A model generated the notes under the pieces. That model saw only the letters and a list, made by a program, of their open reading frames with translations. It was not told the DNA's origin and searched no databases. The position numbers and the translations under genes were made by a program. From a virus: DNA of 30,280 bases. Location of the stretch: UHGV virus genome UHGV-0139558, one strand, 5' to 3'. Shown here one piece after another: positions 25,751-30,003 of the stretch (position 1 is the stretch's first letter; every line of letters starts with the position of its first letter).

Positions 25751-25921
25751 ATGTTTGTGAAACCTGTTAAAGGGCGGTCAGTGCCTGACCCTGCCCGCGG
25801 CGACCTTTTGCCCGCCGAAGGGCGAAATGTTGATGAGAACAACTACTGGCTGCGCCGTGAAGCAGCGGGTGATATCCGGCGCGTGAATAAAAAGGTGAAC
25901 ACCGATGACGATAAGCTTTAA
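25751..25921 (+). CDS. Small protein upstream of tail sheath (DUF2635-like); not in the supplied ORF track (under 60 aa)
   Basis: 56-codon ORF 'MFVKPVKGRSVPDPARGDLLPAEGRNVDENNYWLRREAAGDIRRVNKK...' overlapping the sheath start, as in Mu-like tail modules. Confidence 0.45.
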   Translation: MFVKPVKGRSVPDPARGDLLPAEGRNVDENNYWLRREAAGDIRRVNKKVNTDDDKL

Positions 25922-27401
25922 CACCATTCCGTCGAATACGCTGGTTCCGCTGTTTTATGCGGAAATGGATAACCAGGCTGCGAATACTGCACAGGACAGC
26001 GGAGCATCGCTGCTGATTGGTCATGTCAATAACGGTGCAGAGATTGTTGCCAACAGTCTGGTGCTGATGCCGTCGGCAGACTATGCACGCCAGATTTGTG
26101 GTGCTGGAAGTCAGCTGGCGCGTATGGTCGAGGCTTATCGTCAGACCGACCCGTTTGGTGAGCTGTATGTGATTGCCGTTCCTGAATCCACGGGCGCGGC
26201 GGCAACAGTTACGCTGACGGTGACCGGGGCGGCAACCGAAACCGGCACGGTGAATGTTTATGTGGGACGTACCCGCGTGCAGGCACCGGTGACCAACGGC
26301 GATAACGTCACGACGATTGCCAGCAGTATCCAGGATGCCATTAATGCCGTTCCGGCCCTGCCGTTTACGGCCTCATCTTCGGCAGGCGTGGTCACGCTGA
26401 CCGCGCGTCATAAGGGGCTTTGCGGGAATGAAATTCCTGTCAGCCTCAATTACTACGGCTTTGGTGGGGGCGAAGTGCTGCCAGCGGGCGTACAGATTGC
26501 CGTAGCGACGGGGACCGCCGGAACGGGCGCTCCGGTTCTCACCGGCGCGGTGGCTGCAATGGCGGATGAGCCGTTTGATTATATCGGCCTGCCGTTCAAC
26601 GACACGGCCTCCGTTAACACGCTGGTGACCGAGATGAACGATACCAGCGGTCGCTGGAGCTATGCGCGTCAGCTGTATGGCCATGTGTATACGGCAAAGA
26701 TCGGCACGCTGTCAGAACTGGTGACCGCAGGTGACCAGTTTAACCAGCAGCACATTACCCTGGCGGGGTACGAAAAAGACACTCAGACGCCTGCCGACGA
26801 GCTGGCGGCAAGCCGTACCGCCCGCGCAGCGGTGTTTATCCGCAACGATCCGGCTCGTCCCACGCAGACCGGTGAGCTGGTGGGTATGCTGCCTGCGCCG
26901 AAGGGGAAACGGTTCACGATGACCGAACAACAGACCCTGCTGTCTCATGGCGTGGCAACGGCGTATGTCGAAAGCGGGGTACTGCGCATTCAGCGTGATG
27001 TCACCACGTACAGGAAAAACGCTTACGGGGTTGCGGATAACAGCTACCTCGACAGTGAGACGCTGCATACCAGTGCGTATGTACTGCGCAAACTGAAATC
27101 CGTCATTACCAGTAAGTACGGGCGTCACAAGCTTGCCAGTGACGGTACCCGCTTTGGTCCCGGTCAGGCGATTGTCACCCCGGCGGTGATCAAAGGGGAA
27201 CTGCTGGCAACCTACCGTCAGCTTGAGCGTGCGGGGATCGTGGAAAACTACGAACTGTTTAAGCAGTACCTGGTTGTGGAGCGTGATGCCAGCGATCCGA
27301 ACCGCCTGAACACGCTGTTCCCGCCTGACTATGTTAACCAGTTGCGTGTCTTTGCCGTGGTTAACCAGTTCCGTCTTCAGTATTCAGAGGAGTCTGCATA
27401 A
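25905..27401 (+). CDS. Contractile tail sheath protein (Mu gpL-like)
   Basis: 498 aa; followed directly by tube, chaperone and tape measure genes. Confidence 0.8.
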   Translation: MTISFNTIPSNTLVPLFYAEMDNQAANTAQDSGASLLIGHVNNGAEIVANSLVLMPSADYARQICGAGSQLARMVEAYRQTDPFGELYVIAVPESTGAAATVTLTVTGAATETGTVNVYVGRTRVQAPVTNGDNVTTIASSIQDAINAVPALPFTASSSAGVVTLTARHKGLCGNEIPVSLNYYGFGGGEVLPAGVQIAVATGTAGTGAPVLTGAVAAMADEPFDYIGLPFNDTASVNTLVTEMNDTSGRWSYARQLYGHVYTAKIGTLSELVTAGDQFNQQHITLAGYEKDTQTPADELAASRTARAAVFIRNDPARPTQTGELVGMLPAPKGKRFTMTEQQTLLSHGVATAYVESGVLRIQRDVTTYRKNAYGVADNSYLDSETLHTSAYVLRKLKSVITSKYGRHKLASDGTRFGPGQAIVTPAVIKGELLATYRQLERAGIVENYELFKQYLVVERDASDPNRLNTLFPPDYVNQLRVFAVVNQFRLQYSEESA

Positions 27402-27757
27402 TGGCCCGTATCGGGGGAACCTGTTATTTCAAAATTGACGGTCAGCAGCTATCGCTGACCGGCGGCATTGAGGTGCCCATGAACAAGACGGTAAATGATG
27501 ACATCATCGGCCTGGACGGTTCAGTGGACCGCAAGGAAACTCACCGTGCGCCTTATGTCAAAGGGACCTTCAAGGTGCCGAAGAATTTTCCGGTGAGCAA
27601 AATCACCTCGTCTGATGAGATGACCATCACTGCCGAGCTGGCAAACGGTCAGGTCTATGTACTGTCGTCTGCCTGGCTGCACGGCGAAGCGAACCATAAT
27701 GCCGAAGAAGGCACGGTCGATCTTGAGTTCCACGGTGAAGAAGGGGATTACCAGTAA
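27401..27757 (+). CDS. Tail tube protein (Mu gpM-like)
   Basis: 118 aa, ATGGCC start overlapping sheath stop; canonical position. Confidence 0.75.
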   Translation: MARIGGTCYFKIDGQQLSLTGGIEVPMNKTVNDDIIGLDGSVDRKETHRAPYVKGTFKVPKNFPVSKITSSDEMTITAELANGQVYVLSSAWLHGEANHNAEEGTVDLEFHGEEGDYQ

Positions 27758-28026
27758 TGAAAGAGCTTGAGTTAAAGAAACCGATTACCGCTCATGGCGA
27801 GACACTCTCCGTACTGGAGTTTGATGAGCCCACCGGGAAAGATGTCCGCGAGCTGGGATATCCCTACCAGATGAATCAGGATGAGTCCGTCAGACTTCTG
27901 GCGCATGTGGTATCGAAATACATTGTGCGGCTGGCGAAAGTGCCGCAAAGCTCTGTCGACCAGATGTCTCCGGCAGACCTGAATGCAGCGGCGTGGCTTG
28001 TGGCTGGTTTTTTCCTCCAGGCCTGA
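27757..28026 (+). CDS. Tail assembly chaperone (G-like), zero-frame product
   Basis: 89 aa acidic protein immediately before the tape measure; ends just after a T-TTT-TTC slippery site. Confidence 0.7.
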   Translation: MKELELKKPITAHGETLSVLEFDEPTGKDVRELGYPYQMNQDESVRLLAHVVSKYIVRLAKVPQSSVDQMSPADLNAAAWLVAGFFLQA

Positions 28027-28175
28027 CGGCTGAATACCTCACTGATCGCTTTTTTGATTGCGCCAGCTACTGGCGCATTAATCCCTTCGAATTGCTGAAT
28101 ATGCCGATCAGTGAAATTCCCTTGCTGGTCAGTCAGGCAAACAGGATAGAGCAGGAGAAACGCACACATGGCTGA
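28008..28175 (+). other. Programmed -1 frameshift site (T TTT TTC at 28008-28014) and -1 frame extension of the tail chaperone (GT-like fusion)
   Basis: Heptamer X XXY YYZ = T TTT TTC in the chaperone zero frame; -1 frame is open from there to 28175, ending 8 nt after the tape measure start. Confidence 0.6.
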
Positions 28176-30003
28176 ATTTGAGCTTAAGGCGTTGATCACC
28201 GGTGTCGACAGGCTTTCTCCCGCGCTGTCGAAAATGCAAAAGAAAATCCGGGGATTTAAACGCCAGGCGGAAGAAGCGTCACAGGGTGGGCTGGCGCTTG
28301 GTGGCGGACTGGCAGCGGGTCTGACGCTTTCCCTGAAATCTTATGCCGATCAGGAAAACGCCGCCACCGGGCTGAAAGTCGCCATGATGGATGCGAACGG
28401 CGAGGTTGGAAAGAGCTTTCAGGACATCAATAAACTGGCTATTGGCCTGGGTAACCAGCTACCCGGTACAACGGCTGATTTCCAGAACATGATGCAGATG
28501 CTGGTGCGTCAGGGGATCCCGGCAGAAAACATTCTTGGTGGTGTGGGTAAAGCGACAGCTTATCTTGCGGTACAACTGAAAAAAACACCGGAAGCGGCTG
28601 CTGAGTTTGCTGCAAAGATGCAGGATGCTACCGGAACGGCGTCAGAAGACATGATGGGGCTGTTCGACACTATCCAGAAGGCGTTTTATCTGGGCGTTGA
28701 TGATACCAACATGTTGTCCTTCTTCACTAAAACCAGTTCTGTTCTGAAAATGGTGAATAAGGACGGTCTTCAGGCTGCACAGAGCCTTGCCCCTATCAGC
28801 GTCATGATGGATCAGATGGGGATGAACGGGGAGTCGGCAGGTAATGCCCTGCGAAAAGTTATCCAGTCCGGATTAAGCGTTAAGAAAATCAGGGACGTCA
28901 ATAAAGTCATGGCCCGCCAGAAACTCGGAGTGCAGCTCGATTTTACTGACGGCAAAGGGAGTTTTGGCGGTCTTGATAACATGTTTAAGCAACTGGCAAA
29001 GCTGCGAAAACTGACCGACGTTAAGCGAACAGGTGTACTTAAGGCAATATTTGGTGATGATGCCGAAACCCTTCAGGTGGTCAATGCTCTGATCGATAAA
29101 GGAAAGGATGGTTACGATCAGATCCAGCAGAAGATGAATAAACAGGCCAGCCTGAATAAACGTGTTCAGGCCCAGCTTGGTACGCTGTCCAACCTGTGGG
29201 AGGCAATGACGGGGACCGCAACTAACGGCCTTGCGGCTATTGGCGGCGCATTTTCTGGTGACGCCAAAAATATCACGCAATGGCTGGGGGAGTTGGGGGA
29301 AAAATTCACGAAGTTTGCGGATGAAAATCCCCAGGTTATTCGCGGCGTCGTCGGGCTTGCTGCCGGTCTTGCGATTCTGAAACTGGGATTGATGGGCGTT
29401 GGCGGTGCCATCAGTATTGTCAGCAGGATTATGTCGATGACGCCGATTGGCATGATTGCGACGGCGATAGCCCTGGCTGCGGGATTAATTATCACTAACT
29501 GGGATGTTGTCGGACCTTATTTCAAGAAGCTCTGGGAAACCATTAGTCCTTATTTTGAGGCTGGCTGGGAACTTCTGAAGAAGGTTTTTGCCTGGTCGCC
29601 GCTGGGGATGGTGATCAATAACTGGGGACCGGTTGTTAAGTGGTTTCAGGATATGTGGGATAAGCTGAAGCCGATTATTGAATGGTTTACCGACAGTTCC
29701 GGTGACACGGTCGATGCCATTAACTCTGCGCAGTGGGGCGTGGGTGCTTATGATGCTTATGGGACGGGAATACCGGCGCGGGGATACACGCCTTATCCGG
29801 CGATGGATCCGGCTCAGGCAAACAACGCCTCTGATGCCAAAGGCCCGAATCCCTTCATGATTAATAAAGCTACTGCGCCAAAAGTTGATGGTGAGATCAA
29901 GGTCTCTTTTGTGAATTCACCTCCGGGGATGCGGGTTATGGAAACGCGATCCAGCGGTTTTGATGTCAGCCATGATGTTGGCTATACGCGCTTTGGCAGG
30001 TAA
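28168..30003 (+). CDS. Tail tape measure protein
   Basis: 611 aa, Gly/Ala-rich with hydrophobic central segment; downstream of frameshifted chaperone. Confidence 0.85.
   Translation: MAEFELKALITGVDRLSPALSKMQKKIRGFKRQAEEASQGGLALGGGLAAGLTLSLKSYADQENAATGLKVAMMDANGEVGKSFQDINKLAIGLGNQLPGTTADFQNMMQMLVRQGIPAENILGGVGKATAYLAVQLKKTPEAAAEFAAKMQDATGTASEDMMGLFDTIQKAFYLGVDDTNMLSFFTKTSSVLKMVNKDGLQAAQSLAPISVMMDQMGMNGESAGNALRKVIQSGLSVKKIRDVNKVMARQKLGVQLDFTDGKGSFGGLDNMFKQLAKLRKLTDVKRTGVLKAIFGDDAETLQVVNALIDKGKDGYDQIQQKMNKQASLNKRVQAQLGTLSNLWEAMTGTATNGLAAIGGAFSGDAKNITQWLGELGEKFTKFADENPQVIRGVVGLAAGLAILKLGLMGVGGAISIVSRIMSMTPIGMIATAIALAAGLIITNWDVVGPYFKKLWETISPYFEAGWELLKKVFAWSPLGMVINNWGPVVKWFQDMWDKLKPIIEWFTDSSGDTVDAINSAQWGVGAYDAYGTGIPARGYTPYPAMDPAQANNASDAKGPNPFMINKATAPKVDGEIKVSFVNSPPGMRVMETRSSGFDVSHDVGYTRFGR

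Follow-up and report, generated by a model that had tools for sequence, protein, structure and literature searches.

Predicted programmed −1 frameshifting of ribosomes in the tail assembly chaperone gene of a temperate, SfV-type myophage

The lambda G/GT class of tail assembly chaperone frameshifts, reportedly set out for the long-tailed phages by Xu and colleagues in 2004, has its type site immediately upstream of the lambda tape measure gene. In phage P2, the database record lists E (91 aa) and E+E' (142 aa), the latter as a joined CDS marked '-1 frameshift' at T TTT TTG, and no downstream hairpin is reported next to this site (PMC3091744). Phage Mu is reported to use a −2 shift instead (Atkins 2016; PMC2628397), and in the structure of the Mu virion gp41 could not be resolved (PMC11915804), an indirect hint that chaperones of this kind are absent from virions. 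Outside the phage tail genes, tandem slippage on X XXY YYZ heptamers is seen in E. coli dnaX and in IS3/IS911. H_HH.U_UU.Y sequences are among the efficient, shift-prone heptamers in E. coli, U_UU.U_UU.C is used by some IS elements, and in a reporter UUUUUUC shifted at 7.6% with a strong stimulator and at 0.12% with none (Sharma 2014).

Here we compare these systems with a locus in the window, by which we mean the whole 30,280-nucleotide stretch of the viral genome UHGV-0139558 that was analysed. With 98% identity, the window belongs to the SfV/SfI/SfII type of E. coli/Shigella myophages, and we consider it very likely that the tail assembly chaperone gene of this temperate phage carries a programmed −1 ribosomal frameshift. 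The genes concerned all lie on the plus strand, in the order tail sheath (25905–27401, 498 aa; PF04984, PF17482 and PF17481), tail tube (27401–27757, 118 aa; PF10618, E = 3e-33), chaperone (27757–28026, 89 aa plus stop, the equivalent of P2 gpE and SfV orf13) and tape measure (28168–30003, 611 aa; PF10145, E = 1e-26). The records of SfV and other phages label the homologue of 27401–27757 as tail tube, and the sheath is described as 'similar to Mu gpL' in the SfV record, which makes this a contractile, Mu-like tail module. The chaperone ORF matches PF10109 (Phage_TAC_7, titled 'phage tail assembly chaperone proteins E, or 41 or 14') with E = 1.9e-16 and 60.3 bits against a gathering cut-off of 25, and also phrog_166 'tail protein' (E = 7e-24). 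NCBIfam returned no match, not even for the P2 E+E' control. Structure prediction with AF2 reached a pLDDT of 65 for the chaperone with a 13-sequence alignment and of 46 for the fusion alone; a Foldseek search of the PDB returned nothing below E = 3, and a PDB sequence search gave marginal matches to unrelated light-harvesting complexes only.

The ORF starting at 27757 reads ...GTG GCT GGT TTT TTC CTC CAG GCC TGA around the proposed site, and this codon reading places TTTTTTC in the X XXY YYZ phase, beginning with the last base of GGT. The heptamer T TTT TTC, a proposed site of tandem −1 tRNA-Phe slippage, occupies 28008–28014 (the T-run at 28008–28013 and the C at 28014), and the chaperone stop (28024–28026) follows after three sense codons, just as the original prediction had it. 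The first codon after a −1 slip is CCT (28014–28016), from where the −1 frame runs through 53 sense codons (PPGLTAEYLTDRFFDCASYWRINPFELLNMPISEIPLLVSQANRIEQEKRTHG) to a TGA at 28173–28175. The frame had been predicted to be open for 54 further codons, and open it is, the figure of 54 being reached only if the stop is counted. The −1 stop finishes on the eighth base of the tape measure gene (ATG at 28168), so that the extension (28014–28175) overlaps the tape measure start by 8 nt (ATGGCTGA), again as anticipated. A fusion of about 140 aa had been proposed, and we calculate 86 + 53 = 139 aa, or about 15–16 kDa judging by length, for join(27757..28014, 28014..28175), spanning 27757–28175 with the junction ...WLVAGFF/PPGLT.... 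Peptides predicted from the sequence include FFDCASYWR and INPFELLNMPISEIPLLVSQANR for the extension and VPQSSVDQMSPADLNAAAWLVAGFFPPGLTAEYLTDR across the junction. We note that the tube stop overlaps the chaperone start (ATGA) and that an AGGAG at 28153–28157 falls within the extension coding sequence.

Taken alone, the window provides modest, suggestive evidence, because in-frame heptamers are common and a frame of this length is not especially rare: among the roughly 9,100 codons of the window's long ORFs there are 41 heptamers of the form XXXYYYZ in frame, and a random frame of the same base composition would stay open for at least 53 codons with P ~0.06. None of the 41 yields a product running beyond its own stop. 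A null drawn from within the window for −1 frames open past the stop was set aside as uninformative (31 of 89 ORFs), since that frame is often taken up by the following gene where operons are packed. It is the comparative data which decide the matter.

The in-phase run of six or seven Ts is kept in about 30 relatives, down to 35–40% chaperone identity, in agreement with the original prediction of a conserved frameshift. T TTT TTY/G is found in phase in 20 of 20 genome loci, which extend from the Enterobacteriaceae to the betaproteobacterium Derxia and from 100% to 40% chaperone identity, and the in-phase run is also present in ST64B, SfIV, phiP27, AH07, BgVeeders33, DVM-2008, PG1 and PBb002, as well as in P2 and a Hamiltonella prophage. 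By tblastn, 23 phage records show this arrangement across two frames, and the tape measure gene is likewise overlapped by 8 nt in P2, ST64B, SfIV, phiP27, AH07 and PG1. The distance between the heptamer and the zero-frame stop varies (3, 6, 8, 9, 10, 14, 16 or 21 codons), and stops in the zero and −1 frames confine the shift to no more than 34 nt containing the heptamer. The codon that provides the first T may be GGT, AAT, AGT, CCT, GAT or CGT, always NNT, and thus the amino acid varies (G, N, S, P, D or R) and the T does not; the third positions of the neighbouring Ala and Val codons vary freely. A set of 80 near-identical viral contigs was used only to look for polymorphism in the T-run, because they are identical at the protein level and hence useless for divergence tests, and in three of these (L024, L055 and L061) the first position of the heptamer is broken by a synonymous GGG. 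An apparently longer T-run in Hamiltonella (P0120, ...FFFPG) was rejected as its DNA is an ordinary GGT TTT TTC. We also rejected six database proteins (P0001–P0006) as natural full-length fusions. Each derives from just one contig and has a garbled junction (...AGFSSSLTAEY..., ...FFLQARRLNTSLIAFFDCASY...), which looks like the outcome of indel errors at homopolymers.

A homopolymer could also act during transcription, with RNA polymerase adding a U at the T6 run so that part of the mRNA carries the fusion as one continuous frame. The run is indeed homopolymeric, reaching T7 in some relatives, and a one-base insertion would yield the identical protein; error-prone assemblies do carry indels exactly at the T-run, which shows only that it is slippery for sequencing polymerases. 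In bacteria, however, transcriptional slippage becomes efficient only with runs of about 8–9 or more, and the run here is T6, or T7 at most. The X XXY YYZ codon phase, which ribosomal tandem slippage requires and polymerase slippage does not, is kept in every lineage despite the differing flanking amino acids, and the homologous P2 site is annotated as translational. We judge transcriptional slippage to be very unlikely.

The DNA beyond the chaperone stop might instead do nothing, with the heptamer and the open −1 frame occurring together by coincidence and 28027–28167 being a non-coding spacer. This stretch is indeed treated as intergenic in the inspected database annotations, and both the abundance of in-frame heptamers and the chance of an open frame noted above would allow it. 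Against this, the −1 frame past the chaperone stop gives pS = 0.625, pN = 0.150 and dN/dS = 0.125 with no stops among 11 sequences, whereas the remaining two frames of this region have dN/dS values of 1.39 and 1.25, with 26 and 49 stops; the chaperone body itself has a dN/dS of 0.071 among relatives. The −1 extension is thus under purifying selection, and a peptide motif, [YF]-x-x-A-x-[YF]-W-[RK]-x-x-P...A-x-R-I, is common to 16 diverse sequences and conserved down to 35–40% chaperone identity. Added to this is the conservation of the heptamer at the nucleotide level. As far as sequence comparison allows, a functionless spacer is refuted, and we put its probability close to nil. No other element accounts for the 141-nt 'gap' among those sought: region scans found no Rfam family, promoter or terminator, and an antisense ORF of 107 aa (27876–28199) is broken by stops in 7 of 10 relatives.

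Given that the −1 frame is protein-coding, it could be an independent small gene of 60 aa starting at the GTG at 27993 and needing no frameshift. Such a start is present in the window, a separate hypothetical protein is recorded in phage vB_EcoM-689R6, gene callers do likewise in Hamiltonella genomes, and in PHROGs the extension stands alone as phrog_32181 (E = 4e-40). But in 11 of the 20 relatives the −1 frame contains neither ATG nor GTG nor TTG before the heptamer, although the peptide is retained, and where there is a start its type varies (GTG, ATG or TTG). The GTG at 27993 has no Shine-Dalgarno sequence, and the −1 frame opens just 15 nt before the heptamer in one relative (L096) and 9 nt before it in P2. 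An independent gene would also leave unexplained why the in-phase T-run is conserved across amino-acid changes, and we regard it as highly improbable. The +1 frame closes two codons past the chaperone stop in the window and within 2–6 codons in 15 of the 20 relatives, the rest being longer (up to 51 codons in L103). The absence of a conserved start, together with the position, the PF10109 assignment, the conserved heptamer and the selected extension, upholds the description of this locus as a G/GT-type site upstream of the tape measure gene; judging by comparison of sequences, all of the testable defining features of such a tail-chaperone frameshift are present.

Any homology between the extension and P2 E' would be remote. 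PF06528 (Phage_P2_GpE, the E' part) was not matched by the extension of the window or by those of nine relatives at E values up to 10, although the P2 control matches at 1.2e-21, and the Bordetella PBb002 extension matches it only below the threshold (15.7 bits vs 23). When a profile of 16 extensions was compared with P2 E' using hhalign, 44 columns aligned collinearly in a weak match (P = 4.7e-4, probability 32%), and a 10-sequence extension profile gave P = 0.0065. The bridging peptide of Mu also shows a weak resemblance to the extension (hhalign P = 0.0019).

We found no conserved RNA structure that would stimulate the shift. The fold of the 46 nt following the heptamer is no more stable than that of shuffled sequences (z = −0.04), folding of 28008–28110 and of the 46-nt segments in 10 relatives gave no conserved element, a sliding 40-nt scan of 18 relatives gave no family-wide structure, and no Shine-Dalgarno-like sequence was seen by eye upstream of the heptamer. 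There is a hairpin at 28060–28076 (GCGCCAG-CTA-CTGGCGC), inside the extension and 45 nt 3' of the heptamer, with a local fold of −14.2 kcal/mol, and it lies about one ribosome footprint past a ribosome on the heptamer. Among 11 close relatives its four synonymous stem sites are invariant and the loop is variable, and in most of the distant relatives the stem is lost. Whether it belongs to the frameshift signal is uncertain, and it probably does not. One could propose that, in the clade close to SfV, this unusually conserved hairpin sets the level of frameshifting as a distal stimulator of the collision type, where a shifted ribosome would pause at the hairpin and the next ribosome would queue on T TTT TTC, unlike a classical element 5–9 nt downstream; and, separately, that the SfV-type extension (phrog_32181, with no Pfam family) is a distinct tube-recruiting domain and not a diverged P2 E'. 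We think this proposal very unlikely to be correct.

Under ribosomal frameshifting at the heptamer, the majority of ribosomes would translate 27757–28026 and release the 89-aa chaperone, and a minority would slip back by one base with tRNA-Phe in the P site on TTT (28009–28011) and tRNA-Phe in the A site on TTC (28012–28014), both re-pairing with TTT after the slip. Reading would resume at CCT (28014), with C28014 decoded twice, and continue for 53 codons to end 8 nt into the tape measure gene, giving a 139-aa fusion in which the N-terminal chaperone body is followed by a small domain at the C-terminus. If lambda gpG/gpGT and P2 gpE/gpE+E' are a guide, the tape measure protein would be coated by both forms, and the tube protein would be recruited by the extension that the rare long form carries, after which the tube and then the sheath would polymerise around the tape measure; neither form would remain in the virion. 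We infer the synthesis of the fusion, the ratio of long to short form and the role in assembly, for which the model is taken from lambda, and suggest that the fusion is very probably essential for tail assembly.

The main value of this finding lies in annotation, as the predicted 139-aa protein is missing from the records we inspected: no joined CDS is present in SfV, SfII, SfIV, ST64B, phiP27, AH07, vB_EcoM-689R6 or one E. coli genome annotated by PGAP, and the C-terminal half either falls into a 141-nt 'intergenic gap' or appears as a hypothetical protein of its own. Of 5,426 complete E. coli genomes, 917 carry the same DNA. In the literature covered there is no description of a frameshift in SfV or ST64B or of the TTTTTTC site (Xu et al. 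2004, Christie et al. 2002 and the SfV genome paper were outside this coverage). The site is an ordinary, widely conserved frameshift site which is absent from annotation, rather than new biology, and it leaves the understanding of frameshifting or of tail assembly unchanged. It does provide a comparative example in which TTTTTTC, TTTTTTT and TTTTTTG occupy the homologous position in the chaperones of P2-like and Mu-like contractile tails, with Mu itself reportedly shifting by −2.

The dnaX and IS3/IS911 signals share with the window tandem slippage on an X XXY YYZ heptamer, but they rely on an upstream Shine-Dalgarno-like element and/or a hairpin or pseudoknot at 5–9 nt and neither is evident in the window. 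Lambda gpG/gpGT shares with the window the location of the site directly before the tape measure gene, but the lambda tail is non-contractile whereas the window has a contractile tail module, the chaperone families are unrelated at the sequence level, the lambda heptamer is G GGA AAG (read by Gly and Lys tRNAs) rather than T TTT TTC (Phe and Phe), and the lambda T domain is much longer than the extension seen here. In Mu the flanking genes are homologous, the SfV-type sheath and tube being annotated as resembling Mu L and M; the PF10109 title mentions gp41, and the stretch between gp41 and the tape measure gene is spanned by an ORF in an alternative frame. However, the Mu extension is read in the +1 (= −2) frame, gp41 has 144 aa and an in-phase XXXYYYZ heptamer is lacking, and in the window the extension does not lie in the +1 frame, which closes early.

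P2 differs from the window in that the rest of the window tail module is Mu-like, the last base of the heptamer is G in P2 and C in the window, the zero-frame stop follows after six codons in P2 and three in the window, the chaperone bodies are only ~20–27% identical (pairwise E = 0.009), and the window extension has no PF06528 match and only the weak profile match to E' given above. Both have the order sheath, tube, chaperone and tape measure, an N-terminal body in PF10109 (47.8 bits for the P2 E+E' control), products of similar size (89/139 aa in the window and 91/142 aa in P2) and no hairpin beside the site, none having been found in the window and P2 being reported to have none. The T6 run lies in the same codon phase within a homologous ...V-x-G-F (GTG GCT GGT TTT TTC in the window and GTG GTC GGT TTT TTG in P2), the window fusion aligns collinearly with P2 E+E' with junction opposite junction, and in both the extension ends at base 8 of the tape measure gene (gene T in P2). 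The closest model for this locus is P2 E/E+E', from a phage with a contractile tail, and not lambda G/GT.

The window is ~98% identical to the Shigella and E. coli temperate myophages SfV, SfI, SfII, SKA5 and vB_EcoM-689R6, with a sheath gene (25905–27401; PF04984, PF17482 and PF17481) and a tube gene (27401–27757; PF10618) leading into an 89-aa ORF (27757–28026) and then the tape measure gene (28168–30003; PF10145). The 89-aa protein matches PF10109, 'Phage tail assembly chaperone proteins, E, or 41 or 14', at 60.3 bits (cut-off 25). Starting at ATG 27757, this ORF ends …GTG GCT GGT TTT TTC CTC CAG GCC TGA, and the six Ts at 28008–28013 plus the C at 28014 are read in the zero frame as GGT TTT TTC, which puts TTTTTTC in the X XXY YYZ phase. 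The sequence thus confirms the slippery heptamer T TTT TTC predicted at 28008–28014, three sense codons 5' of the zero-frame stop (28024–28026). The first codon following a -1 slip is CCT (28014–28016), and this frame is open for 53 sense codons up to the TGA at 28173–28175, so that the 54 further codons of the original prediction are right when the stop is included. With the tape measure ATG at 28168, the last base of the -1 stop is the eighth base of that gene, as had been claimed, and the predicted fusion of 86 + 53 = 139 aa agrees with the approximately 140 aa expected. The extension contains a second T6 run (28050–28055, + strand; CGC TTT TTT GAT). A C stands immediately before this run, so in the -1 frame it does not have the X XXY YYZ phase; it too shows indels in error-prone assemblies (P0002, a database protein resembling the fusion), and no function is suggested for it.

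Taken by itself, the window sequence exceeds chance only modestly. Its long ORFs include 41 in-frame XXXYYYZ heptamers in ~9,100 codons, and in none of these does the -1 product reach beyond the stop of its own gene. A random frame of the same base composition would be open for at least 53 codons with P about 0.06, and the -1 frame is open beyond the stop in 31 of the 89 window ORFs, which is frequent in a packed operon because the next gene often begins in that frame. The case therefore depends on context and comparison.

A scan using one genome per species produced 20 loci from Edwardsiella, Shigella, Buttiauxella, Citrobacter, Atlantibacter, Scandinavium, Kluyvera, Erwinia, Pantoea, Kosakonia, uncultured proteobacteria and Derxia, with chaperone identities from 100% down to 40%. 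All 20 have an in-phase T-run (T TTT TTC, except for T TTT TTT in two) and a -1 frame open for 41–49 codons beyond the chaperone stop, and in 15 the +1 frame is closed within 2–6 codons. The two-frame arrangement of chaperone and extension was also found by tblastn in 23 annotated phage records. When eight further phages and P2 were examined, the heptamer was T TTT TTT in ST64B, SfIV and phiP27, T TTT TTC in AH07, Burkholderia BgVeeders33 and the Pseudomonas tailocin-like element DVM-2008, and T TTT TTG in Stutzerimonas PG1, Bordetella PBb002 and P2. T TTT TTC is also the heptamer of a Hamiltonella prophage. The distance from heptamer to zero-frame stop is 3, 6, 8, 9, 10, 14, 16 or 21 codons among relatives, and the nearby stop of the window is thus no component of the signal; the 21 codons account for the annotated chaperone CDS of 107–111 aa in ST64B, SfIV and phiP27.

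The codon holding the first T is NNT in every lineage, yet its amino acid changes between Gly, Asn, Ser, Pro, Asp and Arg, and the third positions of the Ala and Val codons adjoining the heptamer vary freely, which indicates selection on the nucleotides of the T-run in a fixed codon phase. Upstream of the heptamer, the -1 frame is open for just 15 nt in one relative (L096) and for 9 nt in P2; in the close group, the zero frame closes 12 nt downstream of it. Stops in both frames thereby confine the shift site to ≤34 nt, heptamer included. The T-run might also give the fusion through slippage of the polymerase during transcription, but this seems unlikely from the sequences, as the run is merely T6–T7 and its codon phase is strictly kept, which is needed for tandem slippage by the ribosome and not by the polymerase. 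Three of 80 near-identical viral contigs (L024, L055 and L061) have GGG TTT TTC or GGG TTT TTT at about contig positions 1745–1760, where the first heptamer T is replaced by a synonymous change that leaves the chaperone protein unaltered; possible explanations are a weakened site, prophage decay or an error in sequencing.

Past the chaperone stop, a comparison of eleven ungapped sequences gave dN/dS 0.125 for the -1 frame (pS 0.625, pN 0.150, no stops), against 1.39 for the zero frame (pS 0.201, pN 0.264, 26 stops) and 1.25 for the +1 frame (pS 0.209, pN 0.251, 49 stops); the chaperone body in its own frame gave 0.071 (pS 0.693, pN 0.125, stops not counted). Variability in the -1 frame is highest at the third codon position (0.34, 0.27 and 0.51 for positions 1–3 in 18 distinct sequences), and 16 diverse extensions have in common the motif [YF]-x-x-A-x-[YF]-W-[RK]-x-x-P … A-x-R-I. 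Together these argue that the 141-nt 'gap' is protein-coding in the -1 frame, and the dN/dS, the stops and the motif lead us to reject an open frame arising by chance or a non-coding spacer. Scans of the gap found no Rfam family, promoter or terminator. An antisense 107-aa ORF (27876–28199, - strand) that stretches across the extension, from the end of the chaperone gene to the beginning of the tape measure gene, is spurious, having 1–3 stops in seven of ten close relatives. We also reject the -1 ORF as a gene with its own start: in that frame, ATG, GTG and TTG are all absent upstream of the heptamer in 11 of 20 relatives, the start-codon type varies among those having one, and GTG 27993 in the window has no Shine–Dalgarno sequence. 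In one viral contig (L022, IMGVR_UViG_2541047860_000003) the extension ORF is broken after …ELLN, ~90 nt past the heptamer, and runs on without a frame change into a 505-codon ORF encoding a VapE-like domain (PF05272, E = 5e-33). Either the contig is chimeric or the prophage has been rearranged so that a satellite-type region adjoins the tail module.

We checked the equivalent of 28027–28167 in seven phage records and one PGAP-annotated E. coli genome (NC_003444, KC736978, NC_022749, NC_004313, NC_003356, MZ501270, ON470584 and NZ_CP070071), and a joined CDS was absent from all of these. The region is a gap in the SfV, SfII, SfIV, ST64B, phiP27 and AH07 records, the -1 ORF is entered as a separate hypothetical protein in vB_EcoM-689R6 (ON470584) and likewise by Hamiltonella gene callers, and the PGAP genome has solely an 89-aa 'phage tail assembly protein'; DNA of the extension region occurs in 917 of 5,426 complete E. 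coli genomes. Singleton 107–139-aa 'fusion' proteins from public metagenome and Logan assemblies (P0001–P0006) were rejected as natural fusions, being homopolymer indel errors with junctions scrambled at the equivalents of 28008–13 and 28050–55; they are a potential source of false hits when frameshift products are sought automatically.

The 46 nt past the heptamer fold no better than shuffles (z = -0.04), and the sole structure near it in the window is a 4-bp GGCC/GGCU hairpin at +6. GC-rich hairpins occur 1–4 nt 3' of the heptamer in some distant relatives (L098, L103 and DVM-2008), and a sliding scan of 18 relatives found no consistently structured position. Further downstream, 45 nt 3' of the heptamer and inside the extension codons C-A-S-Y-W-R, is a perfect 7-bp hairpin (28060–28076, + strand; GCGCCAG-CTA-CTGGCGC; -14.2 kcal/mol locally) with an extended stem at about 28054–28081. 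Among 11 close relatives (pS about 0.63) the loop codon is AGC, AGT or AGA, yet all four synonymous sites of the stem are invariant; only two other synonymous sites in the whole extension are (P about 0.003, post hoc and counted by hand). The equivalent is fully paired (7/7) in L101 and L102 and 6/7 in L096, and the stem is lost in L097, L098, L100, L103, ST64B, SfIV, phiP27, PG1 and Hamiltonella. Strong hairpins unrelated to this one occur about as far from the heptamer in P2 and BgVeeders33, which is not significant family-wide (about 3/10 lineages). The hairpin is too distant for a classical stimulator, and its conservation is the one remaining oddity of the site.

The lack of a consistent structure next to the heptamer agrees with the P2 site, which was reported without a hairpin (PMC3091744). 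H_HH.U_UU.Y ranks among the efficient E. coli heptamers (Sharma et al. 2014, PMC4066793), where UUUUUUC gave 0.12% frameshifting with no stimulator, 0.89% with the IS911 stimulator and 7.6% with the IS3 pseudoknot, and UUUUUUG, the P2 motif, gave 0.12%, 0.25% and 0.77%, respectively. P2 efficiency in its native context is reportedly 2- to 3-fold above that of lambda (Atkins 2016), so context matters, and the efficiency in the window cannot be predicted.

In the P2 record, the 91-aa E is accompanied by a 142-aa E+E', the latter a joined CDS with a 'site of -1 translational frameshift' at GTG GTC GGT TTT TTG, compared with GTG GCT GGT TTT TTC here, and E+E' likewise ends 8 nt into the next gene, T. 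E+E' and the window fusion are collinear, with junction opposite junction (20–27% identity, E = 0.009). E+E' matches PF10109 and, over the E' part, PF06528, for which SfV-type extensions gave no match. A profile of 16 extensions aligned with E' over 44 columns (P = 4.7e-4, probability 32%) and the PBb002 extension (…FHWPPSELL…) matches PF06528 below threshold, so homology between the SfV-type extension and E' seems likely. PBb002 (L112, 1131–1289) has an SfV-like chaperone (34% identity) and an extension resembling E', and may be a useful link in bringing the extensions together as one family. Mu has related sheath and tube genes, but its extension (L105, NC_000929, 3950–4117) is in the +1 frame without an XXXYYYZ heptamer (…CGG GGG CGA…), its shift being reported as -2 (Atkins 2016; PMC2628397), and the window site is thus not of the Mu type. 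Most lineages of the PF10109 chaperone family thus enter the extension by -1 on T6C, T7 or T6G, but in Mu it is in the +1/-2 frame.

Lambda G/GT is a functional paradigm only, as its proteins are unrelated to those of the window at the sequence level. By analogy with lambda and P2, two tRNA-Phe slipping in tandem would yield a minor 139-aa product. The short and long chaperone would both bind to the tape measure protein, with the extension recruiting the tube protein, and neither form would be kept in the virion. Mu gp41 is not resolved in the virion (PMC11915804), which is compatible with such loss and no proof of it. Confidence in the predicted structures was low, and a fold search gave no useful match. 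The programmed -1 frameshift originally predicted for the chaperone is upheld by the in-phase, nucleotide-conserved T TTT TTC, the coding -1 extension without its own start, PF10109 membership and P2-like anatomy. SfV may already have been reported as a frameshift case in earlier literature. The site adds an unannotated case to a well-known frameshift class, its nearest counterpart being P2 E/E+E'.
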